Source: a virus (taxonomy: Duplodnaviria; Caudoviricetes). Taken from it: DNA of 64,000 bases. Both the position numbers and the translations under genes were made by a program. Shown here piece after piece: positions 2,893 through 27,086 of the stretch. Position 1 is the first letter of the stretch; every line of letters begins with the position of its first letter. The notes under the pieces were generated by a model. It ran no database searches. It had not been told where the DNA came from and saw only the letters and a program-made list of their open reading frames with translations. The DNA lies in IMG/VR virus record IMGVR_UViG_3300012122_000001, positions 8,726-72,725 of that record, one strand, 5' to 3'.

Positions 2893-2895
2893 CGA

Positions 2896-3189
2896 ATGGC
2901 GGCGGACGACGTCGATCCGCAGATCAAGGCGCAGCGAGACCGGATCATCAAGGCGTTCGAGACGATCGGGTTATCGACGGCGAAGCTTCATGCGGCGACG
3001 GACCAGCAGGTCCAGGCAATCGGAGCACTTTTCGAAGCGATCGCAAAGGACAAGGACGGTCTGATCTGCGCGATCGACGATTTGATCGTCGAGATCCAGG
3101 GACTTCGGCAGGACGTGCGCGCGATCGCCAAGGCGACCGGCATCCAGGCGGGGCTCGCCTCGCTGTTCGGAGCCGCGAGGAGACGCTGA
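2896..3189 (+). CDS. small coiled-coil protein
   Basis: Directly follows the previous stop; heptad pattern; ends GLASLFGAARRR. Confidence 0.75.
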   Translation: MAADDVDPQIKAQRDRIIKAFETIGLSTAKLHAATDQQVQAIGALFEAIAKDKDGLICAIDDLIVEIQGLRQDVRAIAKATGIQAGLASLFGAARRR

Positions 3190-3204
3190 GGTTTCGTTTA
3201 TCAC

Positions 3205-3233
3205 TTGACATAGGATTCACAGTAGAGCAAAAT
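3205..3233 (+). promoter_or_regulatory. sigma70-like promoter
   Basis: TTGACA-N17-CAAAAT in an AT-rich intergenic region. Confidence 0.65.
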
Positions 3234-3275
3234 GTTATTCGTAGATCGGCAGAGAAGCTCGTAGGAGCAGAATAG

Positions 3276-3303
3276 GCCGCGGCGAAAGTCGCGGCTTTTT
3301 TTT
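3276..3303 (+). terminator. intrinsic terminator / attenuator
   Basis: 8-bp stem GCCGCGGC-GAAA-GTCGCGGC followed by T8. Confidence 0.85.
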
Positions 3304-3324
3304 ATGGGCCGAGATGGGGAAGAG

Positions 3325-3495
3325 ATGACGACGGTGATCTGCCCGAAGTGCGGACGTTTCGCACTGAAGGGTAGGTTCCAGATCGTCGAGACCATCTGCA
3401 ACGACCGCGATTGTCGCGCGAACTTCGTTGTAGAGGTGCTCGCGGACGGATCGACCGCGATCCGGACTCTTCCCCGACAGAAGGTTAAGGCGTAG
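3325..3495 (+). CDS. Com-like zinc-ribbon protein (alternative start 3304)
   Basis: CPKC-x15-CNDRDC spacing resembling phage Mu Com-type Zn ribbons. Confidence 0.6.
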   Translation: MTTVICPKCGRFALKGRFQIVETICNDRDCRANFVVEVLADGSTAIRTLPRQKVKA

Positions 3496-3666: not shown

Positions 3667-5208
3667 ATGAGCTCGACCGTCGAAGGGCTCGAGCGCGGAG
3701 TCATCGGCACGGACAAAACCATCCAGAGAATGCACCGTCTGGTCGCGCTGGGAAAGCTCGACCCGACGATCCAGAAGATCGCGACCTGGATCCGCCTGGG
3801 CGTGCCCAAGGACGTGCGCGCCTCGACGAAGCTCGCGGCCGACGCGATCTTCAACTGGGTTCAGAAGCACGGTCTCTTCCAGCGCGACCCGTTCCAGATC
3901 GAGAAGATCGAGCATCCTATCGAAGCGATGCGGCCGATCATCGAGGCGCGCAAGGCCGGGACGTACACCGGACCGGCGCTCTTCGTCGGCGACTGCGACA
4001 CGATGGCGGGCGTGTACACGGCGAGTTTGCTCGGCGTGCTCGGCTTCCAGTATTCCTTCGAAACCGCCAAGGTCGATCCGGATCGCCCCGACGAGTTCTC
4101 TCACGTCTGGGTCTCCGCGCGGATCGGGAACGAGTGGTACCCGCTCGACCCGTCGACGCGCGGGGCATATCCCGGCTGGCGTCCTCCGGTCAAGCCGGAG
4201 CAGTTCAAACGCTGGCCGGAGGGACCGATCGAAGACGTCGTGAAAGGGTCCGACATGAGCGCATTCAACAGCGGCATGGGGGATAACGGAGAAGACGAAG
4301 GCGGCGACGAGCCCGTCATCGAGAACAACGATTCCCCCCTCACCGGAGTCGACGCCGAGTACGCCCAGGACTACATCGGATACGGGATCCCCAGGGACTT
4401 CGGCAGCGGCCCAGGCGTGATCCCGCCCGGCAACTTCGAGAGCCTCCAGCTCCTTCCGCCGCACGACACGCAGATCCCGGCGGCCGACCTGGAGCGGGAC
4501 ATGCATCTGCTCAAGGCGGCGCCGCGCCTGGACCCGTCCGAACGGATCCAGAGCCTCGCCGGTCAGCCGAACGACCACGGCAACCCCTACTATCGCGGGG
4601 GTGGTCGCCAGCCCTACATCAAGGTCGAGCGCAAGATGTACCCGCCCGGCTCGCGCTGGAACGAGCCGTACGGCAAGGACACCATCCGCTACCAGAAAAC
4701 CGACAAGTACATTTCCGTCAAGAGTCCCGAAACACCCGAAAGACGAGTGGAGGTCAAGATGGACCAGCCGATGCTGATCCGCAGGAGAAACGTCATGACG
4801 CCCCCTCAGCGGATCCCGTTCGGCGCAATGGACGGCATGGGCGACATCGATCCCAATACCGGGATCATGACCTTCGGCTCGACGCCCGCGCCCACGGCGA
4901 CGCAGACGGCAGCGGCGACCGCCGGAACGTCCGTCTGGGATTCGATCCTGGGCGCATTCTCGTCCGTCGCGAAGGCCGCCGGAACGATCGTTCCGTCGGT
5001 GCTCCAGTCGAAGACCGCGCAGGCCGTCGCGAGCGCGACGAACCGTCTCGCGGGCTCGAACGTGCTGACGGCCGGGCAGCTCACCAACCCGACGCCCTGG
5101 TACAAGAACCCCGTCACGATCGGCCTGGGGCTCGCCACGCTCGGCGGCCTGGGCTACGTCGTCATCAAGATGCGCCCCGGCATGGGCGGCCGGAGGCGTC
5201 GCCGGTAG
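3667..5208 (+). CDS. transglutaminase-like (papain-fold Cys-His-Asp) enzyme with C-terminal membrane anchor; candidate maturation protease
   Basis: GDCD, SHVW and PLDPS triad motifs; C-terminal hydrophobic helix IGLGLATLGGLGYVVI plus RRRRR tail. Confidence 0.8.
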   Translation: MSSTVEGLERGVIGTDKTIQRMHRLVALGKLDPTIQKIATWIRLGVPKDVRASTKLAADAIFNWVQKHGLFQRDPFQIEKIEHPIEAMRPIIEARKAGTYTGPALFVGDCDTMAGVYTASLLGVLGFQYSFETAKVDPDRPDEFSHVWVSARIGNEWYPLDPSTRGAYPGWRPPVKPEQFKRWPEGPIEDVVKGSDMSAFNSGMGDNGEDEGGDEPVIENNDSPLTGVDAEYAQDYIGYGIPRDFGSGPGVIPPGNFESLQLLPPHDTQIPAADLERDMHLLKAAPRLDPSERIQSLAGQPNDHGNPYYRGGGRQPYIKVERKMYPPGSRWNEPYGKDTIRYQKTDKYISVKSPETPERRVEVKMDQPMLIRRRNVMTPPQRIPFGAMDGMGDIDPNTGIMTFGSTPAPTATQTAAATAGTSVWDSILGAFSSVAKAAGTIVPSVLQSKTAQAVASATNRLAGSNVLTAGQLTNPTPWYKNPVTIGLGLATLGGLGYVVIKMRPGMGGRRRRR

Positions 5209-5213
5209 GTTCG

Positions 5214-5495
5214 ATGCGCTACATCCGCTACGTCAAGAGACCCGGCATCGGAGATTCCGTCACCGACGGACTCACGACCGGCTTCACCGCTTCGGTCGCC
5301 GAGGCCCTGGAGCCGAAGATCCGGACCATCCTGAAGGAGGACATCCTTCCCATGGTGATGGTGGGTCTCGTCGCGGGCGCCGTAGCGGCGTCGGTCATCG
5401 GATCCTGGTTCGCTTCGCGCCCCTCGCGGTCCGGAGTCCGGTCGAACCCGGTCTCCAGGATCCACATCCCTCTGCGTCGCCGGAGGACCGCATGA
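5214..5495 (+). CDS. small membrane protein
   Basis: One hydrophobic helix, N-terminal GIGD motif, basic C-terminus with RSNP. Confidence 0.75.
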   Translation: MRYIRYVKRPGIGDSVTDGLTTGFTASVAEALEPKIRTILKEDILPMVMVGLVAGAVAASVIGSWFASRPSRSGVRSNPVSRIHIPLRRRRTA

Positions 5496-8400
5496 GCTAC
5501 CAGGATCTCAAGTCCAGGATGGTCGCGCACCTCAAGAAGTGGGCGCGTGGAATGGTTGATTCCGGCGAGGGCATGAACTTCAGCATCGAGTCGGCGATTT
5601 ACTGGTTCGCGAACGACTACCACAACGGCGGCGGAAGCGAGCTCTACCAGATCCTCTCGACCTCGAAATTTCGTCCCGGTCCGTCTCATCGGTCGGTCGA
5701 CGATGAAGGCGACGAGATCGACAAAATGATGTACGAGGAGCTGGAGCGGTACTTCATCCCAAAAGGAAGAGCGAGGAACAACGGTCACACGGGCGTTCGA
5801 AAGAACCCTCCGTCCTTCATCCTGATCGACAAAGAGACCGGACTCGTCGTGTACACGAAGCGGGCGACCGGCGTCGGCAGCGCAGCGATCTCGGCTTGCG
5901 TGAAGCGTGGTCACGAGCTCGCGGACCAGCACAACCGCGTCTACACCGTCTTCCTGGACATCCGCGGCCTCTCTCGTGGCATGAAGGTCCATGTCCCGGC
6001 GATCTATGCGCTCGGGATCACCGAAGAGATCCATCCGGGCGGTCAGTCCGTCCGTCCGAATTCTCGCGGCGCCGTACGGAAGAACATCTTCACCTTCAAC
6101 AATCCGAAGCTGAAGTTCAGCGATCTCTCGGTCGGCGAGACGTTCGTGTTCGCCTCCCAGGACGATCCCAAGTTCCTGACCAGCGGAATGGCGCGCGGTC
6201 CGTGGATCAAGCGCAGCGCCAGGACGTACGAACACGTCGACGACGTCGGCAAGCAGATCTCGGAGCGGAGGTACGGCGGCGGCCATATCGCCGTCGGAAG
6301 CGCCTCCGTCGGAGTGAAGCGCATGAGCCTCGGACGGGAACTGCCGAAGCTCTGCCCTCACTGCGACGCCTCGTATATCGGCACGCCCCAGATGCACAAG
6401 TTCGAGTGCGCTCCCCAGGGCGGAGCGAACCTGTACCAGGAGAACCCGCGCCGCAGATCCGCTCGTCGGAACCCCACGATGGGATCCTACGAGGTCTTCG
6501 TCGGGAACATCGGGCAGGTCTACGACGGGAACGATCGGGCGAAGGCGCAGCACTCCTTCGACTACTACGTCGCCATGTCGAAGCGTACCAGCGGTCGCGC
6601 GAGCGGCGAGGATGTCGCCCTCCTCTGTGAAGGCGAACTCAGCCAGGAGTACATCGGAAGCAAGGGACGCGAGCGCGGAGATCATCGGCGCGGCGTCCGC
6701 CGGAACATCTTCACCTTCAACAATCCTCCGTCCGGCCCGGCAGATCCGGCCGCGGCGCGCGAGCTCGAGGTCTACATCGAGAACGACGCCGACCTCTACC
6801 GGCAGCAGTTCGTCCCGATCGTGAAGAATCTGATGCTGAAGCGCCGGAAGGGCGTCTACAACCGCGAGCTGGCGGTCAAGCTCTTCATGTACCTGATGGA
6901 CGCGGGCGCGAAGAAGTACGTCGCCGAGTACGTCCGCTCGTCGTCGCCCGGCGCGCCGATGCCGAAGATCGACGGCACCTTCAACAAGAACACGCGCCTG
7001 ATGGCCGCGCGGTCCTTCCTGGAGTCCTTCGAAGGCGAGGCGGAGCTCGGGAACTACGACCGGATGATCGGTCCGGTCTCGAACCCTCGGGGGGCAAACG
7101 TGCGGAAGAATATCTTCACCTTCAACAACCCGAAGCAGCGTCCTCTGAACGAGATGGAGAACGCTGCCAGTCTGGTCGGCCTGACCGTCACGACCTGGGC
7201 GCCGGGCGACGGCGTGACGCGCTACCGCTTCTTCAAGGCAGGCGGAAGTCGGTACGCCGACTATCACCAGGGCGGCGCTCTCTACACGGCGCTCGGCCGG
7301 AAGGAAGCGATCGCGTTCATCAAGTCGTACGGCGTCGGCCGTAGCCGGATGAATCCGCTGAACCAGAAAGAAATCGAGCAGATGCGCGATCGCGAGAGGT
7401 TCTACGTCGGTCGCTCTCAGAAGTACGGTTCCGAGGGGAAGGAAGCGGATGCCGCTCACTTCCGAGGCGCCGCGCAGGAGAGTCGGAACATTCGCGAGCG
7501 TCACCATGCCAAGGGCACGGATTGGTGGCCGAATCCCCCTGTCTGCTCGAACCCGCTCGTCCGCGGCGACAAGCTTCCTCACAACCTCCGGATGGAAGTG
7601 CGGAATCGGTTCATCTACCGCTGGACGTCCGACAACGATCGTCGCGCCGAAGTCTACGGCCTCTGCCCGCACTGCAAGACGCGGGGCGGGAAGCCCTCCG
7701 AGACCAACATCGCTTGCCGTCAGGTCCACCCGACGATCCCGCTTCAGACGGACGAGCAGTGGCTCAAGACGCACGCCTTCCACGTCACGAAGGCGGGTCG
7801 TCTCAGCGAGCGGCATAACCATGCGGAGCCGGGCTACATGGCCGACGACGAGACCAGGAAGAATCCGATGTCGCGCCGCGAAGCCGCAGGAGAGATCCGG
7901 GAGATCCGCGGCGCGAGAAGCAAGATGCGCTACTTCCATCGGCTCGGCCGTCCGGAAGCTGCCGAGTTCCAGGACGGATACGCTCACGGAGTCGCAGGAG
8001 CGGTTTACCGCCGCGGTCCGAAGTCCGCGCGTCGTGTCGTCGATCGCGCGGTCCGCTCGAATCCGCTCCTCCAGACCGTGATGCTGGCGAATCCTGGATC
8101 GGTGAAGACTTTCAGCGAGATGCAGGACGTGGGCAAGGCGAAGTACGTTGTGAACTATCACGACGGAGTGAAGGTGCATCGCGACGGTAGCCCGTTTTTC
8201 GACATCGCCATTTTCAGCAATCGGGCTAAGAAAGATCAGTTCGTCAGGAAGTTGGAGAGCCTTGGATTTACTCGGGGCGCCCTTCGGAACCCGCCGATCT
8301 CCACGCAGTGGGATCGGATGACGCGCCGCCAGCGCGAGGCGCTCCTGGAGATCGTCGGCTACGATCGTGACTTCTCCGGCGGCATGACGCTGTCCACCTG

Positions 8401-9133
8401 GGGCGCGCTCTCTCCCGCCGCGAAGCGGAAGCTCGAGGCTCAGTGGCTCGACACGACGTCAAGCGGCGGAACGACGCGCCGTCGGCGCCGCTCGCCGGTC
8501 GCGGTGAATCCGCTGACCAGGAAAGAAGCCGCGTCGACGGTCAGAAGCGCAAAGTTCGACCTTCGATACGGGTCGGCGTTCGCGCCCGGACACACGCGAT
8601 CCGGCTCGGCCGGTCGCGCGTTCGGGAAGGCAACGGTCGTTCGTGACTTCGGCCCCAGGTCAGCCGGTCGGGCCGCGAGCAAGATCATGAAGCGTTCCGT
8701 CGACCTGACGCACGCCGTTCGTACGAACCCCGGCATCAAGTACCCGAAACCCGGCACGAAGATGACCGTCGCCCAGGCGATGGACCTCGCGCGCCGGATC
8801 GGCAACAAGGATCTGATCAAGCAGTGCGAGGAAGCCGCGAAGCTCCAGAAGGTCGCGAACCGCGGCGCGAAGGTCGTCATCTGGAAGGAGCTGCCGATCG
8901 GCTCGCCGAACAAGATCGACATGGTGACGGCCTTCGCCCATTACGGCGACTCTCCGGAGACGATGTACCGGCCGCCGAAGGGCTCGAAGAAGGGCCCGCA
9001 TATGTACCGCCACAAATGGGGCGAGGGAACCGGCAAGAAGAAGTCCGTGCCGATCCTGGCGGCGCCCGGCGGCAAAGCACTCATCACGCTGATGGGCAGC
9101 GACCAGAAGACCGGCGATTGGATGAGAGGCTAG
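5492..9133 (+). CDS. 1213-aa mosaic (polyvalent-like) protein with 16 NP motifs
   Basis: ATGA-coupled to the previous gene; unrelated ~50-100-aa modules separated by basic linkers ending in NP; R(K/R)NIFTFNNP occurs three times. Confidence 0.85.
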   Translation: MSYQDLKSRMVAHLKKWARGMVDSGEGMNFSIESAIYWFANDYHNGGGSELYQILSTSKFRPGPSHRSVDDEGDEIDKMMYEELERYFIPKGRARNNGHTGVRKNPPSFILIDKETGLVVYTKRATGVGSAAISACVKRGHELADQHNRVYTVFLDIRGLSRGMKVHVPAIYALGITEEIHPGGQSVRPNSRGAVRKNIFTFNNPKLKFSDLSVGETFVFASQDDPKFLTSGMARGPWIKRSARTYEHVDDVGKQISERRYGGGHIAVGSASVGVKRMSLGRELPKLCPHCDASYIGTPQMHKFECAPQGGANLYQENPRRRSARRNPTMGSYEVFVGNIGQVYDGNDRAKAQHSFDYYVAMSKRTSGRASGEDVALLCEGELSQEYIGSKGRERGDHRRGVRRNIFTFNNPPSGPADPAAARELEVYIENDADLYRQQFVPIVKNLMLKRRKGVYNRELAVKLFMYLMDAGAKKYVAEYVRSSSPGAPMPKIDGTFNKNTRLMAARSFLESFEGEAELGNYDRMIGPVSNPRGANVRKNIFTFNNPKQRPLNEMENAASLVGLTVTTWAPGDGVTRYRFFKAGGSRYADYHQGGALYTALGRKEAIAFIKSYGVGRSRMNPLNQKEIEQMRDRERFYVGRSQKYGSEGKEADAAHFRGAAQESRNIRERHHAKGTDWWPNPPVCSNPLVRGDKLPHNLRMEVRNRFIYRWTSDNDRRAEVYGLCPHCKTRGGKPSETNIACRQVHPTIPLQTDEQWLKTHAFHVTKAGRLSERHNHAEPGYMADDETRKNPMSRREAAGEIREIRGARSKMRYFHRLGRPEAAEFQDGYAHGVAGAVYRRGPKSARRVVDRAVRSNPLLQTVMLANPGSVKTFSEMQDVGKAKYVVNYHDGVKVHRDGSPFFDIAIFSNRAKKDQFVRKLESLGFTRGALRNPPISTQWDRMTRRQREALLEIVGYDRDFSGGMTLSTWGALSPAAKRKLEAQWLDTTSSGGTTRRRRRSPVAVNPLTRKEAASTVRSAKFDLRYGSAFAPGHTRSGSAGRAFGKATVVRDFGPRSAGRAASKIMKRSVDLTHAVRTNPGIKYPKPGTKMTVAQAMDLARRIGNKDLIKQCEEAAKLQKVANRGAKVVIWKELPIGSPNKIDMVTAFAHYGDSPETMYRPPKGSKKGPHMYRHKWGEGTGKKKSVPILAAPGGKALITLMGSDQKTGDWMRG
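6077..7132 (+). repeat. three ~30-bp direct repeats encoding R(K/R)NIFTFNNP
   Basis: Near-identical copies of cggaagaacatcttcaccttcaacaatcc at ~6077, ~6698 and ~7103. Confidence 0.9.
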
Positions 9134-9143
9134 GAGAATTCAC

Positions 9144-10262
9144 ATGATCGGAGCACTTGTATTTGCGAACCCCGGACGGCCTGTAGCCGCTCGGAGGAGA
9201 CGTTCGCGTTCCCGTACCGCCCGCACGACGGGCAGGAGAGTCAAGATGGCACGCACCCGTTCGCGCCGTCGCACCGGGCGGCGCATCCGGCGGAATGCCA
9301 AGGGGCATTTCGTCACCCGGCGCCGGTCGACCCGGCGTCGGCGTCGGAATCCCAGCGGCTTCATCAAGGTCGGCCGCCGCTGGAAGAAGATCACGAAGTA
9401 CGCCCGTCGGCGCCGTCGGGGCAGCCGGAAGGGCCAGATCCGGGCCTTCAAGTTCCCGAAGCGGTATCGGCGGAGCCGCCGGGTTCGTCGGAACCCCGTG
9501 GTCGTCGCCAACCCGCGTCGGAGCCGTAGCCGTCGGGCGCGGCGCAACCCGTATCGGCGTCATCGCCGGTACGTCCGTCGGAATCCCAGCGTCGCGTATC
9601 GGCTGACGTCGGATCCGGTCGCGGCGATCAAGTCGGCGATCATGTCCGCGTTCTCGATGGACACCGTCGAGACGCTGTTCCACATGGGCCTGGGCTTCGG
9701 CTCGTCCATCGTGGTCAGCCGGACGCTGATCAAGCAGTGGCTGCCGGTCCTCGGCGAGACCGCTCTCGGCCGGGTCGGCGGCACGTTCGGGACCGGCGTG
9801 GTCCTGACGGCGCTGTCGAGCTTCCTCAAGAACTCGAGCCTCACGGCCCGGTTCCTGACCGGCTCGCTGTTCGCCACCTTCTGGCAGGGCCTGTCCGAAG
9901 TCGTGTCGGCCTACCAGCCTCAGCTCAAGGAGTTCATCCCGACGCTGTCGGGCGCTCCGGAGACCGAGGAGTTCCGTCGCGCGATCGAGCGGGAAGTTCT
10001 CCGCGAGCTCAAGGGCGGCGTGAACGAATACCTGCCCGCGGCGGGCGCCGAGGGGTACTCGACGTACCTCCGCCCGGCCGGGATCGAGTACCTCCGTCCC
10101 GCCGGGACGGAAGCGTACCTCACCGAAGTGGGCGCGGAGCGCGCCCAGGGAGGCATGGGCGCCTTCCTGACCGACCGCGAGGTCAGTCGCGTCGAAGCCC
10201 GGCCCAGCGGGGTCGGCGAGGACGAGTTCGGCAGGGGCGACACCCTGCCGGAGCGGTTCTAG
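9144..10262 (+). CDS. Arg-rich (protamine-like) core/membrane protein
   Basis: First ~150 aa very Arg-rich with 6 NP motifs (mostly RRNP), then hydrophobic helices, then (E/T/A)YLxxxG repeats; directly upstream of the capsid gene. Confidence 0.8.
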   Translation: MIGALVFANPGRPVAARRRRSRSRTARTTGRRVKMARTRSRRRTGRRIRRNAKGHFVTRRRSTRRRRRNPSGFIKVGRRWKKITKYARRRRRGSRKGQIRAFKFPKRYRRSRRVRRNPVVVANPRRSRSRRARRNPYRRHRRYVRRNPSVAYRLTSDPVAAIKSAIMSAFSMDTVETLFHMGLGFGSSIVVSRTLIKQWLPVLGETALGRVGGTFGTGVVLTALSSFLKNSSLTARFLTGSLFATFWQGLSEVVSAYQPQLKEFIPTLSGAPETEEFRRAIEREVLRELKGGVNEYLPAAGAEGYSTYLRPAGIEYLRPAGTEAYLTEVGAERAQGGMGAFLTDREVSRVEARPSGVGEDEFGRGDTLPERF

Positions 10263-11238: not shown

Positions 11239-12192
11239 ATGAGCTGGTCCCAGGTTCCGACATTCCTCCGCATCTCGGACAAGGATCCCGATCCCAAGAA
11301 GCGCGGGATCATCTACATGAACCCGGCGAAGGACTGGGTTCAGCCGTTCGAGCTGACGGTTTCGAAGCCGAACCAAGTCATCCGTCTCGCCGCGGGCGAG
11401 CAGCGCGGGCCCTTCCCGCTGACGGCGCAGTACGACGGCCCGATCGAGGTCTTCTACGTCAAGGCCAACGTCTACGAGGACGACGACGGGGAGCCCGGCG
11501 CCCTGGTGAACTCGTACGACATCGACGTGCTCCTGGAGCATCCGGGCAAGCGGATCCAGTTCATGAACCGCTTCGTCCCGCTCGACGCGATGTCCGGAAA
11601 CGCCGGGCTGCCGTACGTCCTGCCGGAGACGATCTTCATCCCGCCGGTCCAGTCGCTCAACCTGACGCTCGTCAACAACGATCTCGCCAACGCGCGGCAC
11701 GTCGAGTTCGTCCTGGGCGGCATCAAGTTCTACCCGAACATGGCGCCGTCCGAGATCCGCGGCGAGACCTGGAAGTACGTCGACCGCCGCGAGCGGACCT
11801 ACGCCTACCTCATGACCACCGACGAGGAAGCCGTCGTCGCCGCCTCGGCCACCACGCCCTTCTTCATGACGATCCCCGACAACGCGGATCTCGAGGTCTT
11901 CAAGCTGACGGCCAAGGCGACCGCCGCCTTCCGCTGCCGCGTGCGCGACGGTCAGAACGACCGCGCCCTCACCGGAGACCTCGTCCACTCGGCGCTGCTC
12001 TTCGGCGGCCACCAGCCGCTCTCGGGCAACGCTGCGGTCACCGGATCCGGCGGTCTCTTCCCGGCACGCTGGGCGACCTCGTGGCTCATCCGGCGGTCGA
12101 CGAAGGTCCAGCTCGATCTCCAGGACATCAGCGCCGCGGAGAACGAGATCAAGGTCATCTTCGGAGGCAGAAAGATCAGCTATGTCAGCTAA
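11239..12192 (+). CDS. putative double jelly-roll capsid protein
   Basis: Visible internal duplication: the halves end in VEFVLGGIKFY and IKVIFGGRKISY, each preceded by G...P...LP/W...I...L.L.N/D; all-beta pattern. Confidence 0.6.
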   Translation: MSWSQVPTFLRISDKDPDPKKRGIIYMNPAKDWVQPFELTVSKPNQVIRLAAGEQRGPFPLTAQYDGPIEVFYVKANVYEDDDGEPGALVNSYDIDVLLEHPGKRIQFMNRFVPLDAMSGNAGLPYVLPETIFIPPVQSLNLTLVNNDLANARHVEFVLGGIKFYPNMAPSEIRGETWKYVDRRERTYAYLMTTDEEAVVAASATTPFFMTIPDNADLEVFKLTAKATAAFRCRVRDGQNDRALTGDLVHSALLFGGHQPLSGNAAVTGSGGLFPARWATSWLIRRSTKVQLDLQDISAAENEIKVIFGGRKISYVS

Positions 12193-12892
12193 AAATCCGC
12201 CTCGCCCTCCTCGGCGCCCCAGGCGCGGAGGAATGGGCGATGACCAGTACTTCTACGAGGGATGGCGCGACGCAGGCCAGGGGGAACCCAGGCCGATGGA
12301 CGTCGTGTCCGATCCCAACTGCCCGCCGCCCAAGGAAGCGCAGCAGTGCGGGAAGGTCAAGCTCAACTGGGTGAAGTTCCCGGCCTTCAACCAGCCGCCG
12401 TTCTTCGCCAAGCCGCTCATCAAGGCCCGGTCGTCGCTCGTGATCCCGGCCGGGGACATCGCGCTCATCTTCGACCGCGAGATCGCCGATCGCCAGCGTG
12501 CGATCGTCTCTCTCGTCGGGATCGACGTCGCGCCGATCGCGCCGCTCCTGAACTCGCAGCTTGAGTTCTGGTTCCAACTCGGCCGCCAGGGCGTTCCCGA
12601 AGTTTCGAAGAACGTCATTCCGGTCTGGGACGACCAGAATCCGACCGGCTACGGCGGGTCGACCCCGATCCAGTCCGGCCGGACGACCGTGTGGCCCGGT
12701 GTCGCGACCCCGGAGGAGTTCTTCAAGAACGGCCTCCAGTTCGGCGTACGCGGCCGGGGCCAGCTCCAGGGACTCATCGAGAACAAGTCCGCCGTCGACG
12801 TCACGGTCCGCGGGATCCTGGGTTACTACTACTACTGGTCCAGCGGCCCTGGTGGTGCCTCGGAGTTCGAGGCCGGAGATTTCCAGGCGTAG
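12182..12892 (+). CDS. putative penton / minor jelly-roll protein with basic leader
   Basis: Leader MSAKNPPRPPRRPRRGGMGD, then a beta-rich domain ending VDVTVRGILGYYYYW. Confidence 0.5.
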   Translation: MSAKNPPRPPRRPRRGGMGDDQYFYEGWRDAGQGEPRPMDVVSDPNCPPPKEAQQCGKVKLNWVKFPAFNQPPFFAKPLIKARSSLVIPAGDIALIFDREIADRQRAIVSLVGIDVAPIAPLLNSQLEFWFQLGRQGVPEVSKNVIPVWDDQNPTGYGGSTPIQSGRTTVWPGVATPEEFFKNGLQFGVRGRGQLQGLIENKSAVDVTVRGILGYYYYWSSGPGGASEFEAGDFQA

Positions 12893-20971: not shown

Positions 20972-21250
20972 GTGATGCTGCTTTCTCTGTCCTTCGTGAT
21001 GGATGCGGTGACGGTGGATCCTCCGACCGGCGGAATCAGTGCGCTGGCGTGGATCATCATCGTCACTCTGGCTGGGGTATGTGGTGTGGCGATCCCCGCT
21101 CTCTGGTATCGCGGGAACAAGATCCAGGACCGGATGTACGCGGACCTGAAGACCTGCAACGAGAGACGGGTTCAGTCCGAGGAAGAGCAGCTCGACCTGC
21201 TCAAGCTCGTTCGGCTCCAGATGGAGCAGTCGAAGGGAGGCAAGCGGTGA
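20972..21250 (+). CDS. small membrane protein (holin-like)
   Basis: TM helix ALAWIIIVTLAGVCGVAIPALWY followed by a coiled coil; true start uncertain. Confidence 0.55.
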   Translation: MMLLSLSFVMDAVTVDPPTGGISALAWIIIVTLAGVCGVAIPALWYRGNKIQDRMYADLKTCNERRVQSEEEQLDLLKLVRLQMEQSKGGKR

Positions 21251-21525: not shown

Positions 21526-21798
21526 ATGGTGAGTACCTATTCGAAAGCCAGGGGGCGGGCGGGAAAATTGGCGTTGGTCGCAGCCCTGGTGGTCTCCACC
21601 ATGGGCTGCGCCATCGCGGATCGGTCGGATAAGTTCGGTGCAGAATTAGACCTGGGGCTCGGCGGGATCCTCAGCTCGATGATCGATGTCCGCCTGTATG
21701 CGTCGGTGGGATTCTCGAAGACCTGTAAGGATGGGGTGAACGGTGAGAAAGAAGCTGATCTGGATGGCGATCCTCTTGGCCTTCGGGGGTTTCTTTAG
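21526..21798 (+). CDS. putative lipoprotein
   Basis: Basic N-terminus, hydrophobic core, lipobox-like TMGC. Confidence 0.55.
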   Translation: MVSTYSKARGRAGKLALVAALVVSTMGCAIADRSDKFGAELDLGLGGILSSMIDVRLYASVGFSKTCKDGVNGEKEADLDGDPLGLRGFL

Positions 21799-22312
21799 CG
21801 GCTGCACCGTAGCGCAGCGAAAAGAGATTCTGGAAGAAGCGAAGCTCTACGCCTTCGAGCAGGGGAAGATCCTTCTCGAGCAGGCGAAGGAGCAGGGTAA
21901 GGTGATCGCCATCCAGGCGGTCGAGAAGATCCAGAAGAAGGCCGACGAGGAGGAGGCGAAGCAGTTCGCTGCTCTAGATCAGCAGCTCACGGCCTTCAAG
22001 GTTGTCGACCAGGAGACCCAGATCGAAATCTCGAAGACCTGGAGAGACTTCGACGCCGATAAGAGCGGACACCTGGAGCCGATCGAGCTCGGCAAGGTTA
22101 CCGCCTACATCACCACTCAGACCGCGAAGAAGATCGCGACCGGCGAGATCGACAAGAATACGGCCGGACAGACCGGGAAGAGTACAGGCGCGACGATCTC
22201 GGTGCTCCTGGCCCTCTACCTCGCGCGCCGCGGCGCGGGAGCTCTGACGTCGAAATTCAAGCCTGCGGTGACCCCTACAACTCCTAGAGCCGGAGGGGCG
22301 CCGCCTTCATAA
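21743..22312 (+). CDS. putative lipoprotein with coiled coil
   Basis: MRKK-hydrophobic-FSGC lipobox; second hydrophobic stretch near the C-terminus. Confidence 0.65.
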   Translation: MRKKLIWMAILLAFGGFFSGCTVAQRKEILEEAKLYAFEQGKILLEQAKEQGKVIAIQAVEKIQKKADEEEAKQFAALDQQLTAFKVVDQETQIEISKTWRDFDADKSGHLEPIELGKVTAYITTQTAKKIATGEIDKNTAGQTGKSTGATISVLLALYLARRGAGALTSKFKPAVTPTTPRAGGAPPS

Positions 22313-22313
22313 G

Positions 22314-22607
22314 ATGGACGAGATCCTTGGAGCTCTTGACCCTTCAACGCTTGGCATGGGCGTCGACGCTTCGGCTGTTGTCGCAGTGTCGGAAGCGACG
22401 AATTTGATCAAAGGAGACATGCGGAAGTGGGGTCTCGATGCCGTCGTGGGGAGGTTCTATCCGGCAATCCCGTTTTTGATTGCTTTTGGCCTGGGTCTGT
22501 TGTACGGGAATGCACTCTGGTCCGACGCTTTATGGTATTCTGGGAAGATAGGGCTGCTATCCAGCTTTGCTTGGCAAGGCTATAGGGTATCGGTGAAGGG
22601 CAAATGA
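22314..22607 (+). CDS. holin-like membrane protein
   Basis: 97 aa with 2-3 hydrophobic helices and a basic C-terminus. Confidence 0.55.
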   Translation: MDEILGALDPSTLGMGVDASAVVAVSEATNLIKGDMRKWGLDAVVGRFYPAIPFLIAFGLGLLYGNALWSDALWYSGKIGLLSSFAWQGYRVSVKGK

Positions 22608-23947
22608 GAATTTATGTGCCGATGGAATCGGGGCTGAACCCCCGAGAGATCGCCGCCATGCGGCGCCTCTCGAGGAGTTCGCTCGCGATCATTGCCGACG
22701 AGCTTCACGAGCCGACCTCCAGGAGCACCGTGAAGAGGGTTCTCTCCTCCCGCGATCCGGAGCGGGAAGTGATCAGGCAGGTCGCCGAAGAGGTCCAGCG
22801 CGCCGTCTGGGCCATCAGCACCGTCCGTCACGCCGGACTCGGGGACCACGAGTACGACGACATGGAGCTCATGCCCGACATCGGCTTCGGAAGCTTCTTC
22901 AAGAAGGTCGCCAAGAAGATCAAGGGCGTCGCCAAGAAGGTCGTCGACATCCACAAGAAGGTCTTCGACAAGACCGTCAAGCCCGTCATCAAAGCGACCG
23001 TGAAGGTCGCGAAGAAGTCCGTCGAGATCACCAAGAAGACCGTGAAAAAGGTGATCGAGACGCAGAAGAAGGTCATCAAGAAGATCGGGAAGGCGATCAA
23101 ACCGTACATCCCGATCATCCTAACGGTCGTGGGCGCGGTGCTGGCGCCGTTCACCGGAGGCGCCTCCCTGGCGGTCGCCGCTGCCCTGAACGCGGGCTAC
23201 ATGCTCGCCATGAAGGCGAAGGCAGCGAGAGCCGCGAAGAAGGAAGGCCGCGCAGCAGCCGCCCAGATGCAGGCCGAGGTGAGCGCGCAGACGGCCGACC
23301 TGAACCGCCAGCTCGACCAGCTCTTCACGGAGAACCAGGGGGTCTTTGCCGCCGCAGGTATCTCCCAGGCGGCCTGGAACGCGATGAGCCTCGAGCAGCG
23401 CCTCGCGGTCGTCGAGCGGATCAACTCCGGCAACATGCCGTCGTCGCAGTCGAATGCCGACGCCGCCACGGAGGCCCAGGGGAATCCTCCGACGACCCAG
23501 ACGCAGACGTGGCGGGATGCGATCAATTCCTCGCCGGTCATGCAGCAGTGGCGTGACGAGGCCGGAGACTCCGACACCGCGACCGCCGGAGTCCAGACCC
23601 CGACCGGGACGTACGACGTCTACGTCGAAGGCCGGAAGGTCGGGACCGCCCAGACGCTCGACGAGGCGTCCTCGATCATGGCGAACAACTCGAAGGCCGG
23701 GGACCGGGTCGAGATCGTGCTCAACGGTCGCTCCCTGGGCCTCAAGATCGTGACGGGCGGCGGCGGGGTCATCTCGATCCCCGCCGGTCAGGCCGATGCG
23801 GTCCGCGCGATGTCGAGGTCCGAAGTCGACGCGATGCTCTCCAGGGCTGGTCAGACAACGACCGCTTCGAGCGGATCCTCCGGCGGGCTCGTGCTTGCCC
23901 TCGCCGTCCCGGCGGCGATCCTCTTTGCCATGCATTCGAAGGGTTAG
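22604..23947 (+). CDS. membrane-penetration / DNA-pilot-like virion protein
   Basis: GLGD motif, Lys-rich amphipathic helix GFGSFFKKVAKKIKGVAKKVV..., LAPFTGGASL hydrophobic segment, C-terminal anchor. Confidence 0.65.
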   Translation: MRIYVPMESGLNPREIAAMRRLSRSSLAIIADELHEPTSRSTVKRVLSSRDPEREVIRQVAEEVQRAVWAISTVRHAGLGDHEYDDMELMPDIGFGSFFKKVAKKIKGVAKKVVDIHKKVFDKTVKPVIKATVKVAKKSVEITKKTVKKVIETQKKVIKKIGKAIKPYIPIILTVVGAVLAPFTGGASLAVAAALNAGYMLAMKAKAARAAKKEGRAAAAQMQAEVSAQTADLNRQLDQLFTENQGVFAAAGISQAAWNAMSLEQRLAVVERINSGNMPSSQSNADAATEAQGNPPTTQTQTWRDAINSSPVMQQWRDEAGDSDTATAGVQTPTGTYDVYVEGRKVGTAQTLDEASSIMANNSKAGDRVEIVLNGRSLGLKIVTGGGGVISIPAGQADAVRAMSRSEVDAMLSRAGQTTTASSGSSGGLVLALAVPAAILFAMHSKG

Positions 23948-23950
23948 GCG

Positions 23951-24622
23951 ATGGAAAACAATCTTCCCGCGGCTGCACATGCCTTCGCGACGGCCTTCGT
24001 CGCCGACATGGAGGCCGCCCGGCCGCTCCGTGCCGCGCTCATCCGGAAGCAGATCAACCGGGAAGGCATCACGCGCATCGTCACCAGGGACCTGGATGCA
24101 GCGCGCCTGGGGAGGCGCGGCCCCGCGCTCTTCCCGAACCTCCGCGCCGTCGCGAAGGAGTTCCTGGACCAGGAGAAGCGGCGCGCGCCGTACACCGGGA
24201 TCTCCCAGTTCCACAACCGCGCGGCCGGGTACATGCAGGTCGCTCCGGCGTACGAGCGCGAGGTCTACGGCCTGGGGCAGTGGGACGCGATCATCGGCGC
24301 GATCGGCGCTGCGGCAGGAGCGGCTTCGAGCATCTACGGCGCCAAGATCACCGCCGACGCCCAGAAGCAGCTTCTCAACCTCGAGCAGCAGAAGGTCAAC
24401 GCCCAGATCCAGATCGCCGAGATGCAAGCGAAAGCCGCCCAGGTCCAGCTCGCCGCGGCGAACGCTGCTGCATCCGGGACTCCGGTGAAGATCGGTCCGG
24501 ACGGCCTGCCGGTTCCTTACACCGAGGCTTTCGGTCCAGAGATCGGCGGAGTTCCCGTCATCCCGGCCGTCGCCGCCGCGTTCGCGCTCGCCATCGCCGG
24601 ATACTTCGCCTTCAAGAAATAG
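23951..24622 (+). CDS. virion membrane protein
   Basis: Basic N-half, YGLGQW motif, Ala/Gly-rich helix, C-terminal TM plus KK. Confidence 0.7.
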   Translation: MENNLPAAAHAFATAFVADMEAARPLRAALIRKQINREGITRIVTRDLDAARLGRRGPALFPNLRAVAKEFLDQEKRRAPYTGISQFHNRAAGYMQVAPAYEREVYGLGQWDAIIGAIGAAAGAASSIYGAKITADAQKQLLNLEQQKVNAQIQIAEMQAKAAQVQLAAANAAASGTPVKIGPDGLPVPYTEAFGPEIGGVPVIPAVAAAFALAIAGYFAFKK

Positions 24623-24635
24623 AAAGGGATTTTCC

Positions 24636-25382
24636 ATGCCTGCTTTGAAGATGAACCAGATCGCAGGTCGGATGAAGGTCATCCGCGCGCCCCAGGTGAT
24701 GTATGTCCAGGAGGCGACGTTCATCCCGTCCGGAATGCATGGGATCTCCAGTTCCGCCAGGGAGGCCGTCGTCTCGTCGCTCTCGAAGGAGATGGCCGCG
24801 CGCGGAATTCCGCCGGGCCGGGCCCGCCACGTCGTCAAGATGGCCTCGATGCGGATCCACTCGCGCTGGAACCGCGGGCGCCACCTCGGCTGGGGCAAAG
24901 GCCTGGGCGACGACGAAACGTACGGCCCTCCGCTGCCGAACGACATGGTCGCGGCGAACAAGCTCGCCCTGGTCCAGACCAAGGGCACCGAGTACCAGAG
25001 GCAGCACGCGGCCTTCATCAATCAGCTCCCGTCCTCGGGGGCGAGCGACAGCGACAAGCTCAAGGTCCGCAACGGCATCGAGAACCTCTACAACGAGTGG
25101 ACCGCGTTCGCCGTCGACCTGAAGGGCGGCCTGCCGCCGTTCGAGTGGAACCGGACGGATCCCGTCGACGCGATCCTGATCGCCGTCCGGGACGATCTCC
25201 GCGACACAGTGAACCTGATCGACGCGAACAAAGCCCAGGCCGTTCTCGCCAAGCAGATCAAGGAGCTCGTGAAGCCGGGCTCGCTGCCCGGACTGCCGAA
25301 CCTCCCGAAGATGGACCTTCCCTGGTACGTCTGGGTCGGGGGAGCCATCGCCGCGGCTGTCGCGGCAAAGTACGCGCTCTAA
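24636..25382 (+). CDS. virion membrane protein
   Basis: Basic N-third, KGLGDD motif, C-terminal TM WYVWVGGAIAAAVAAK. Confidence 0.7.
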   Translation: MPALKMNQIAGRMKVIRAPQVMYVQEATFIPSGMHGISSSAREAVVSSLSKEMAARGIPPGRARHVVKMASMRIHSRWNRGRHLGWGKGLGDDETYGPPLPNDMVAANKLALVQTKGTEYQRQHAAFINQLPSSGASDSDKLKVRNGIENLYNEWTAFAVDLKGGLPPFEWNRTDPVDAILIAVRDDLRDTVNLIDANKAQAVLAKQIKELVKPGSLPGLPNLPKMDLPWYVWVGGAIAAAVAAKYAL

Positions 25383-25745: not shown

Positions 25746-27086
25746 ATGAATCTTAAACCCCAGCTCATCGACATGATCCGGACGGTTCCGGAGGTTGCCG
25801 TACGTCTCTGGTGCGGCGGGAAGGTCTTTCCGCACGACGCGGGCGTTCGGATCGAGTACGAAGGGGTCATGACCCAGGTGTCCGTCGAAGCCTACACGGC
25901 GGCGGATGAGGTCTCGAAGATCCTTGGGATCCGCTGGGGCGGCCGGATGCTTCGGTCGGTCCAGGACGTCCTGGAGCTCCGCCACGCCGCCGAAGATGCC
26001 TACCTCGAGAACCTTTTCCATCAGACCGACGTCCCGAAGGCGCTCTTCGTGCCCGCGGGCGTGACGGCCTCCGGCTACTACAGAGCGATGATCCCGTCGG
26101 ACCTCGCGTACGAAGGCGGGAAGGTCATCAGTCACTGGACCTCGTCGGTCGATCTTTCGAAGGTGATGCGTTACGACATCCTCTGGGTTCAGCTCATCAC
26201 GTCGGCCGTCCTGATCGCCATCATCAAGATGGCGAAGACCCAGGGCGTCAAGATCGTGTTCGACATCGATGATCGTCTCGACTCGATTCCAGCCGAGAAT
26301 CAGGCGTCGGCCGTCTACGGAGAAGCTGGGAAGCAGGCAGAGCTTCGGGAGATGATCAAGCTCGCCGACCTCGTGACGGTCTCGACAGAACCCCTGGGGA
26401 AGTACATCCTCGAGAACATGGGCGCGAAGCGGGTCAAGGTGCTCCCGAACCAGCTCACCGCGAACGTCGCCCCCAGGAGACACCCGCCGAACTCGGCGTA
26501 TACACGGATCCTTTGGGCCGGATCCCCGACCCACAAGCGAGACCTCGCGATCGTGGCGCCCGCGATCCGGAACCTGCTCAAGAAGTACAACGGGAAGCTC
26601 CGGTTCACATGTTTCGGCGAGCGCCTGCCGGAGGCCCTGGCGGACTGCTACAACTGGATCGACCTGAAGGACCCGGTCGACTTCGACCAGTACCACGACG
26701 CGATCGCGACGATCGCCGCAGACTTCGGGATCGCGCCGCTTGAGGCGAATCCGTTCAACGAGTCGAAGTCGGCGATCAAGGCCCTGGAGTATGCCTCGGC
26801 CGGATATCCGATGCTGCTCTCCCCGGTCGGAGAGTACCCCGTCATCTGCAAGGCAGGATTTCCGGCAGAGCTCGTCGAAAACGACGGCTGGGAAGCCGCG
26901 ATCGATCGGATGATCGGGATGTCCAGGGAACAGCGCGACGATCTGGGCAAGCGCGGCATGAAGTGGGTCCTCGAGAACCGCTGCATCGGCACCTCGAAGG
27001 CCTCCCAGTGGGCCGATACGATCACCGAGGTCGCGGCCTATCCGCGTGAAGAGGTGGAAGAGTCGAGGCTGAAGCTGGTGACATGA
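25746..27086 (+). CDS. glycosyltransferase, GT-B/GT4-like
   Basis: SGYYRAMIP, FDIDD, ADLVTVST..L, ILWAGSPTH, GIAPL...FN.SKS.IK.LEY motifs. Confidence 0.85.
   Translation: MNLKPQLIDMIRTVPEVAVRLWCGGKVFPHDAGVRIEYEGVMTQVSVEAYTAADEVSKILGIRWGGRMLRSVQDVLELRHAAEDAYLENLFHQTDVPKALFVPAGVTASGYYRAMIPSDLAYEGGKVISHWTSSVDLSKVMRYDILWVQLITSAVLIAIIKMAKTQGVKIVFDIDDRLDSIPAENQASAVYGEAGKQAELREMIKLADLVTVSTEPLGKYILENMGAKRVKVLPNQLTANVAPRRHPPNSAYTRILWAGSPTHKRDLAIVAPAIRNLLKKYNGKLRFTCFGERLPEALADCYNWIDLKDPVDFDQYHDAIATIAADFGIAPLEANPFNESKSAIKALEYASAGYPMLLSPVGEYPVICKAGFPAELVENDGWEAAIDRMIGMSREQRDDLGKRGMKWVLENRCIGTSKASQWADTITEVAAYPREEVEESRLKLVT

Follow-up and report, generated by a model that had tools for sequence, protein, structure and literature searches.

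The 64,000-nucleotide stretch analyzed here (the window) is taken from an IMG/VR virus record of 72.7 kb, IMGVR_UViG_3300012122_000001, which has direct terminal repeats; the window covers bases 8726-72725 of this record. On its + strand it encodes a 447-residue protein in which a long, lysine-rich amphipathic helix runs directly into a hydrophobic hairpin. We tentatively propose, with a probability of roughly 45%, that this is a late, core inner-membrane protein from the virion of a jelly-roll phage without a tail, in which the shell encloses a lipid vesicle. The anatomy of the protein, its family, its periodicity, the motif statistics and the synteny were computed here; we infer the topology, the presence in the virion and the membrane-shaping role. 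A preliminary description of the same region had proposed a membrane-lytic helix hidden behind an acidic pro-segment and exposed by cleavage, as in antimicrobial peptide (AMP) precursors and adenovirus protein VI. This interpretation is partly supported.

A polycationic helix joined to a hydrophobic hairpin

The protein divides into the following segments, based on the open reading frame (ORF) list, GC content at third codon positions (GC3), alignments, Kyte-Doolittle hydropathy and AlphaFold2 (AF2) models with their predicted local distance difference test (pLDDT) scores.

22604..23947, +, whole gene, 447 aa (ORF list and sequence; GC3; conserved N-terminus)
22622..22834, +, four-helix N-terminal domain, aa 7-77 (AF2 of the N-terminal part alone)
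22835..22846, +, GLGD boundary motif of the class G-[LMIV]-G-[DE], aa 78-81 (alignment, AF2, motif counts)
22847..22882, +, acidic linker, aa 82-93 (charge count, alignment)
22883..22900, +, GFGSFF helix-start motif, aa 94-99 (alignments; family consensus G-phi-G-x-F-F, then KK)
22901..23101, +, polycationic amphipathic helix of six 11-residue repeats, aa 100-166 (periodicity, shuffle test, 11-mer register, AF2)
23102..23212, +, hydrophobic helical hairpin, aa 167-203, two 17-residue arms around a TGG turn (conservation, Kyte-Doolittle)
23213..23473, +, basic juxtamembrane helix followed by coiled-coil-like helices, aa 204-290 (AF2 secondary structure; conserved F and W)
23609..23857, +, small beta/alpha C-terminal domain, aa 336-418 (AF2 pLDDT 70-87)
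23882..23932, +, C-terminal hydrophobic anchor, aa 427-443, then a short basic tail (Kyte-Doolittle mean 2.32; basic C-termini in homologs)

The elements named in the preliminary description, namely GLGD, an acidic piece, GFGSFF, a Lys-periodic helix and LAPFTGG, are all present within 22604-23947 (+), where it had placed them. The helix of about 70 residues is also borne out. Residues 94-166 contain 25 Lys/Arg and four Asp/Glu, for a net charge of +21; of the 67 residues at 100-166, 25 are Lys (37%). Averaged over 18-residue windows, the hydrophobic moment at 100 degrees comes to 0.567, versus 0.245 +/- 0.052 for shuffled sequences (z = 6.1); 0 of 5000 shuffles are as high. The moment shows a single sharp peak at 97-100 degrees that stays coherent through all 73 residues, and the autocorrelation has its maxima at lags of 4, 7, 11, 15, 18 and 22. 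No other cationic window in the predicted proteome is as amphipathic.

Six consecutive 11-residue repeats give a straight hydrophobic stripe, three or more such repeats being the mark of 11/3 lipid-surface helices, and the best angle in the homologs is 96-100 degrees. Within the repeats, positions 1, 5, 9, 2 and 6, which are adjacent around an 11/3 helix, are Lys, and positions 10, 3, 7, 11 and 4 are Val, Ile, Ala or Thr. A search for DNA-level tandem duplication behind the 11-mers gives weak, degenerate repeats only. The AF2 model predicts a helix with a break near Pro, at low pLDDT; this break and the conserved Pro133, which lies in the third repeat, suggest a helix-hinge-helix arrangement. 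Judged by composition and periodicity, the stretch is exceptionally cationic, amphipathic and AMP-like in its physical chemistry.

The helix continues into the hairpin, whose two arms have Kyte-Doolittle means of 1.94 and 1.53. The LAPFTGG sequence of the turn begins at residue 180 (nucleotide 23141).

Conservation within the family

A word-indexed search recovers 35 clusters of relatives with identities from 80% down to 28%, and an exhaustive search finds 139 representatives at E <= 1e-3, 92 of which reach E <= 1e-10; all 139 are uncultured. Searches of Pfam, PHROGs, PDB sequence profiles and the ESM Atlas return nothing informative for the 447-residue protein, and tblastn against 50,697 phage records gives no match at E <= 1. 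Whole-protein fold searches (Foldseek against the PDB, a wide VIA search and the viral BFVD library) yield generic long-helix matches only, and a genome collection consulted for a prophage or host assignment yields only short, hairpin-only matches in unrelated bacterial proteins. No homolog is found in the cultured phage SSIP-1 by profile search (best E 0.1) or by hhalign; one candidate there, gp53, matched at E 0.006 and collapsed to a probability of 0.2% in hhalign.

Conservation is uneven along the chain. Measured as identity to the query among 18 homologs, the hairpin and GLGD both reach 75%, GFGSFF 59%, the C-terminal domain 57%, the K-rich helix 47% and the N-terminal domain 44%; the acidic linker is the least conserved segment (31%, with 29% gaps). 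The T, G and G of the hairpin turn are invariant in 86 sequences. Altogether 95 family members bear the TGG span, which is mostly 29-37 residues long. The 45 residues preceding it have a mean charge of +10.3, with 66 of 94 members at +8 or more, and the hydrophobic moment there is at least 0.4 in 62/94. The 15 residues following the span average +3.8 (+3 or more in 78 of 95). Among the closer homologs the K-rich segment is mostly 67 residues long, then 71, 70, 60, 56 and 49. The differences of 4, 3, 7, 11 and 18 residues are helical steps that keep the faces in register, and this phase-keeping argues for selection on the amphipathic surface rather than on charge alone.

The decapeptide of the hairpin turn, APFTGGASLA, followed by a Lys/Ala-rich helix, recurs in bacterial proteins. 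It lies in the transmembrane (TM) region of Pedobacter DUF4280 (PAAR-like)-PT-HINT toxins encoded downstream of VgrG, and also in a protein of a Halioglobus metagenome-assembled genome with a Pfam ApoL match (E 5e-6); the Pedobacter and Halioglobus loci are L011 9461-11050, L007 9461-11068 and L004 9260-10495. A few members of the phage family match ApoL and SseC below threshold. The hhalign probability of 93% for the decapeptide loci is circular, since these loci were chosen by the same pattern, and the matches span 20-79 columns. Together these likenesses give a hint that the hairpin may be of the self-inserting kind.

Genomic context

Searching the window proteins against the fetched loci by tblastn places the family next to genes for a double jelly-roll (DJR) capsid protein, a penton-like protein and a small TM-plus-coiled-coil protein. 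The same neighborhood holds two C-terminally anchored proteins, a glycosyltransferase and a Gp88-like protein. It is shared by contigs L002, L017 and L021-L026, whose versions of the 447-residue protein are 28-40% identical to it. Because this synteny is kept in diverged contigs, the helix-hairpin gene belongs, on the evidence of gene order, to the late-module core in this virus group and is not a moron. The group-1 glycosyltransferase (25746-27086, +; phrog_7162) adjoins the membrane-protein module in all longer related contigs. Elsewhere in the window, an Arg-rich membrane-anchored protein is encoded at 9144-10262.

Four small + strand genes directly upstream (20972-21250, 21526-21798, 21743-22312 and 22314-22607) may form a lysis cassette. 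They include a 92-residue, i-spanin-like protein with an N-terminal TM segment and a coiled coil, and two proteins with a signal sequence plus a Cys lipobox. One of these two, of 189 residues (lipobox FFSGC), has a coiled coil and a C-terminal TM segment and resembles a unimolecular spanin. The last is a 97-residue two-TM protein (22314-22607) that is ATGA-coupled to the helix-hairpin gene. L002 keeps the order of these candidate genes, and ORF50 of SSIP-1 has the same lipobox and a C-terminal TM segment. Pfam and PHROG scans of the four give no hits, to lysis families or to any other.

A putative inner-membrane protein of the virion

In the proposed arrangement, the 37-residue hydrophobic hairpin would be inserted in the viral membrane. 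The Lys helix, about 10 nm long and wound with 11/3 periodicity, would lie flat on the anionic, capsid-facing leaflet, with its Val/Ile face in the lipid and its Lys face on the phosphates. The N-terminal domain, held on a flexible Gly-Leu-Gly-Asp/acidic tether, could touch the shell or another particle protein. During assembly the helix may bend and stabilize the vesicle, and it would be well placed to remodel membranes when the shell opens during infection, in a vesicle-to-tube or fusion step.

Several features fit this arrangement. The periodicity, coherent over 73 residues and dividing the helix into a straight Lys half and a straight V/I/A/T half, suits a helix that rests on a lipid surface, and the long helix runs directly into the hairpin, the most conserved segment. 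The helical-step length differences among homologs point the same way, as do the 139-member family with its synteny to capsid, penton and membrane-protein genes and the ATGA coupling to the upstream membrane-protein gene. The basic flanks on both sides of the short-armed span fit, by the positive-inside rule, a hairpin whose two ends face the cytoplasm-derived side. Membrane-anchored proteins with capsid-docked N-termini are described for PM2 (P3) and NO16 (GP18) (PMC13552765). PRD1 has a delivery tube structured by membrane proteins and a viral membrane whose outer leaflet is enriched in phosphatidylglycerol (PMC3782422), and a vesicle-to-tube or fusion step occurs at entry of internal-membrane phages (PMC3782422, PMC6356626).

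Several observations weigh against this assignment. Presence in the virion is deduced from gene position only. The AF2 pLDDT of the helix and hairpin is 28-45. With arms of 17 residues, and with a basic C-terminal tail that would fit a two-pass topology equally well, the sidedness is uncertain. Candidate lysis genes lie directly upstream, and SSIP-1, which has a homologous gp34, lacks a homolog of the helix-hairpin protein. Moreover, some clades swap the long helix for an Ala/Lys/Glu-rich insert and keep about 12 juxtamembrane residues of the type G-N-F-F-S-K, so the long cationic helix is dispensable to the family. This juxtamembrane element is similar to the repeats at either end of the long helix, and for that reason the helix looks like an expansion of it.

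Gene start and flanking domains

The reading frame 22604-23947 is coding, with a GC3 of 0.82-0.96 compared with 0.22-0.71 in the two other frames, and homologs align over the full length of the protein. The public gene call P0001 (441 aa) begins six codons downstream, at the second Met (22622). The MRIYVP N-terminus is kept in homologs, and the ATG at 22604 is coupled to the stop of the upstream membrane-protein gene in an ATGA overlap; P0001 is therefore probably too short, with 22604 as the likely true start. Starts at internal Met codons just before the helix were considered and ruled out by the high GC3 from 22604 onward and by the conservation of the whole N-terminus in homologs.

The N-terminal domain is modeled with a mean pLDDT of 82, rising to 94-98 at model residues 10-60 (ORF residues 16-66). 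Its four AF2 helices span 7-15, 18-28, 31-41 and 46-70 in model numbering, which is six less than that of the ORF. The model has no fold match in the PDB, where Foldseek reaches an E-value of 6.2 and VIA a Z score of 4.0 at best. No clear fold match was found for the C-terminal domain either. This beta/alpha domain plus anchor also occurs, alone or within longer proteins, in about 30 representative clusters, and a Pfam scan of ten of the longer proteins shows no partner domains. The domain is missing from the L002 and L003 homologs.

The acidic linker and the Gly-phi-Gly boundary

The preliminary description regarded the acidic piece as a pro-segment masking the helix. Residues 79-93 contain six Asp/Glu and no Lys/Arg (net -6), and a negative stretch does precede the helix family-wide: the 20 residues ahead of the helix start carry a net charge of -1 to -8 in 26/26 sequences (26 of 42 were used, the other 16 being dropped because the helix-start rule ended inside the helix). 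In members without the N-terminal domain, an acidic leader of 17-33 residues is followed by GLG and then the basic helix. However, the linker is the segment that evolution has held least, shrinking to two or three residues in relatives, and a charge of -6 cannot neutralize one of +21. The negative stretch thus holds up, and the masking function assigned to it is not supported.

GLGD and the linker are disordered in the AF2 model of the N-terminal 93 residues, and a G-phi-G also stands right at the helix start in the alignments. The 36 late-operon proteins contain 10 instances of G-[LMIV]-G-[DE] where 1.94 are expected, and none of 300 shuffles reaches 10; the other 49 proteins of the genome have one occurrence against 1.45 expected. 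The motif was defined after viewing this genome, which makes the diverged contig L002 a fairer test, and there it occurs four times against 0.67 expected (3/500 shuffles). One of the L002 sites falls at the same place in the penton-like ortholog. Enrichment in L003 is not significant.

Other late proteins carry the motif or a relative of it near basic or recurrent peptides. In the penton-like protein (12182-12892, +) it follows a 16-residue basic N-terminal leader, and this is the site kept in L002; in a 93-residue protein (5214-5495, +) it follows a 10-residue basic leader. The two C-terminally anchored proteins encoded downstream at 23951-24622 and 24636-25382 (+), and their L002 ortholog at 7708-8493, have in common an 18-residue peptide that ends in AYER a few residues before GLG[QD], a further conserved setting for Gly-Leu-Gly.

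A transglutaminase-fold enzyme in the late operon

The late operon that includes the helix-hairpin gene is headed by a candidate processing enzyme.

3667..5208, +, transglutaminase-core cysteine enzyme, 513 aa (Cys/His/Asp motifs GDCD, SHVW and LDPS)

This protein has two GMGD motifs and a C-terminal TM segment with a poly-Arg tail, and it matches gp34 of SSIP-1, an annotated structural protein, with a blastp E of 2e-8. The Pfam Transglut_core score is below threshold for the enzyme itself (17.7 bits) and above threshold for L028 (46.3), gp34 (29.6) and L035 (23.7). Transglutaminase-core loci in other contigs are L038 21296-22210, L028 2015-2542 and L035 547-1095. In L028, an unrelated metagenome contig of lower GC, the small transglutaminase-core gene overlaps the start of a helix-hairpin gene (2497-3405); in its product GLGE is followed by a helix that starts with WWKK and by the same turn of the hairpin. 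In L035 the enzyme gene lies 1.4 kb upstream of a minimal form of the protein, in which an acidic run and G-L-S-G precede a short amphipathic start and the hairpin. Many bacterial transglutaminase-core proteins are proteases, LapG being one example. A full-text literature search reveals no link of a transglutaminase-like enzyme or of proteolytic maturation to membrane-containing phages, and a review of these phages mentions neither (PMC6356626).

Alternative explanations

The enzyme and the motif together raise the possibility of a protease-unmasked penetration peptide, functionally analogous to a fusion peptide or to adenovirus protein VI. In this scenario the particle would contain a transglutaminase-fold cysteine protease whose cut at Gly-phi-Gly would remove the N-terminal domain and the linker and free the N-terminus of the helix. 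On opening of the capsid, the helix would attack the host envelope or fuse with it. The concentration of the motif in late proteins and its recurrence in L002 at the same penton-like site are in line with this, as are the strong conservation of GLGD inside a disordered linker, the second G-phi-G directly at the helix start, and the short members that place no more than an acidic leader and GLG before the helix. So are the relation of the same-operon enzyme to a structural protein of SSIP-1 and the gene overlap in L028; adenovirus VI is likewise cut directly upstream of its lytic helix (10.1101/857581). However, cleavage at the Gly-phi-Gly sites is hypothetical throughout, the motif, which lies outside the adenain consensus, might just as well serve for docking or sorting, and the co-occurrence of enzyme and target is explicable by a common virus lineage. 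The helix is tethered to a membrane hairpin, whereas protein VI is soluble; the charge of the linker is too small to mask it; and the silence of the membrane-phage review on proteolytic maturation (PMC6356626) also counts against the idea. We consider it possible but doubtful. A broader version, in which a packaged protease, a Gly-phi-Gly-acid code in many particle proteins and a membrane-tethered, 70-residue polycationic penetration helix would together serve maturation and entry as AVP and protein VI do in adenovirus, strikes us as unlikely.

If the same enzyme were a true transglutaminase, the amines of the Lys helix could enter into isopeptide cross-links and so fasten the membrane proteins to the shell. 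The transglutaminase core of the operon enzyme, the adjoining genes in L028 and the Lys content of 37% would all fit, but Gln is absent from the conserved motif, such a role leaves the strict amphipathic periodicity unexplained, and proteins with this core are, as noted for LapG, often proteases in bacteria; we rate such cross-linking as highly improbable. The net charge of +21 could also serve a DNA-facing condensing or anchoring protein, with the Lys face on the packaged genome under the membrane and the N-terminal domain on DNA. The N-terminus looks helix-turn-helix-like on reading, and the virus has a further Arg-rich membrane-anchored protein (9144-10262). Against this, DNA binding has no need of a conserved, phase-kept hydrophobic face, and the positive-inside rule would put the helix on the cytoplasm-derived, capsid-facing side. 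The confident model of the N-terminal domain (pLDDT 82), without a match in Foldseek or VIA (best Z 4.0), matches neither a helix-turn-helix nor another DNA-binding fold, and we rejected the helix-turn-helix assignment. A role on DNA is accordingly very unlikely in our estimate. The upstream genes suggest yet another function, that of a late lysis effector whose cationic helix breaks the outer membrane like the phiKT disruptin or a spanin substitute. These spanin-like and holin-like neighbors (a TM segment with a coiled coil, two lipoproteins, and an ATGA-coupled two-TM protein) are all that points to such a role, and disruptin provides a precedent for a phage-encoded cationic amphipathic peptide (10.1101/515445). 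Yet disruptin is a free peptide of 56 residues, compared with 447 residues bearing two anchors, a folded N-terminal domain and a C-terminal domain. The synteny is with capsid and membrane genes, the late-protein motif is present, and the neighbors match no lysis family in Pfam or PHROGs. We hold a lysis function to be improbable.

Likeness to pleurocidin

The preliminary description noted that the helix start echoes the fish peptide pleurocidin, and the 25-residue sequence that it quoted is the published one, which appears in 30 papers (PMC10853354 among them). Ungapped identity is 11/25, with 8/10 over the first ten residues, and 11 identities are reached by 0/500 proteome shuffles and 0/5000 segment shuffles; pleurocidin was, though, picked as comparator post hoc among thousands of known AMPs. 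Family-wide conservation in the pleurocidin-like start is limited to G-phi-G-x-F-F-K-K and does not extend to the Ser of GFGS. The echo therefore stands as a likeness above all shuffles and fails as homology, and on these sequence comparisons it is best read as convergence.

The further idea that the protein is the precursor of a secreted AMP or bacteriocin, by homology or analogy with fish AMP precursors, fares worse. A cationic amphipathic alpha-helix is certainly there (net +21, moment z = 6.1, helix predicted), an acidic stretch lies ahead of the cationic part, and the pleurocidin identity exceeds that of every shuffle. But direct reading shows no signal peptide or hydrophobic leader, the N-terminus being a folded, polar four-helix domain, and no dibasic site flanks the helix, which continues into the conserved hairpin; a double-glycine site is likewise lacking. 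A Pfam scan of the protein (E <= 0.01) returns two weak membrane DUFs only and no AMP family, and none appears among the best 25 of 52 families in a scan of 86 family members. The reading fails because there is no signal peptide or processing site, because the helix is fused to conserved membrane anchors, an architecture that contradicts it, and because the gene is a core gene of the virus structural module; the variable Ser of GFGS is a further point against it. We give this explanation practically no credence.

Comparison with known systems

Pleurocidin- and magainin-type AMPs share with the phage protein a G-aromatic-G-S-F-F-K-K start, a Lys-rich amphipathic helix and an acidic neighbor segment. 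The phage helix is about three times as long as an AMP, is not encoded as a free peptide, lacks a signal peptide and processing sites, and has no homology to these peptides. As a side benefit, it may be a plausible scaffold for natural antibacterial peptides. The phiKT gp28 disruptin is likewise a phage-encoded, cationic, amphipathic AMP-like helix (10.1101/515445), but it is a free lysis peptide of 56 residues rather than a doubly anchored, 447-residue protein of a structural module.

The parallel with adenovirus protein VI drawn in the preliminary description applies to the conserved boundary ahead of a membrane-type helix. Both viruses have jelly-roll capsids, both place such a helix directly after the boundary to an N-terminal piece, and both have a short Gly-containing motif common to several particle proteins and a virus-encoded cysteine enzyme. 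The parallel does not extend to the mask, since VI is masked in the hexon cavity and not by an acidic piece (10.1101/857581). Protein VI is soluble with a 21-residue helix, while the phage helix is membrane-tethered and, at 67-73 residues, three times longer. Adenain has its own fold and cuts at (M/I/L)XGX-G; the phage has G-phi-G-[DE] and a transglutaminase fold, and cleavage is hypothetical. The adenain consensus (M/I/L)XGX-G or (M/I/L)XGG-X is absent on reading around residues 74-99, where G-[LMI]-[GS]-D is conserved. Homology to pVI is seen neither in the Pfam scan of the protein nor among the best 25 of 52 families of its relatives, and a PDB profile search gives no significant match. Proteolytic maturation and a membrane-active helix that is masked have up to now been hallmarks of adenoviruses and of large DNA viruses of eukaryotes; if the motif were a cleavage code for the transglutaminase-fold enzyme, jelly-roll viruses of bacteria and of animals would have both features in common.

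Among the membrane-inserting toxin hairpins (type VI secretion system DUF4280/PAAR-like, ApoL-like and SseC-type), the Pedobacter toxins and the Halioglobus ApoL-like protein have the APFTGGASLA turn followed by a Lys/Ala-rich helix in common with the phage protein; their contexts are unrelated and homology is not established.

Capsid-to-membrane linker and delivery proteins of internal-membrane phages include PM2 P3 and P6, NO16 GP18, and PRD1 P16, P11, P18, P32 and P7/P14. These too are products of late genes in tailless lipid-containing phages, with predicted anchors and an N-terminal part free to reach the shell, and they are candidates for vesicle shaping and genome delivery. The phage protein has no PHROG or tblastn match to them, and they are not known to be described with a polycationic 11-mer-repeat helix or a TGG hairpin. 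The PRD1 delivery proteins are themselves without recognizable relatives (PMC3782422). How tailless lipid-containing phages shape their vesicle and pass DNA across the host envelope is little understood, and the present family offers a widespread candidate for this role that is easily recognized by its succession of acidic stretch, Gly-Leu-Gly boundary, cationic 11-mer helix and TGG hairpin.

Apolipoproteins, alpha-synuclein and perilipins lie flat on curved lipid surfaces. No sequence relation to them is evident, an Apolipoprotein match being weak and confined to one family member, and the polar face of the phage helix is almost pure Lys, without an acidic center. What the phage helix has in common with these lipid-binding helices is the 11/3 periodicity, here in six repeats, and a straight hydrophobic stripe that covers about half of the circumference.

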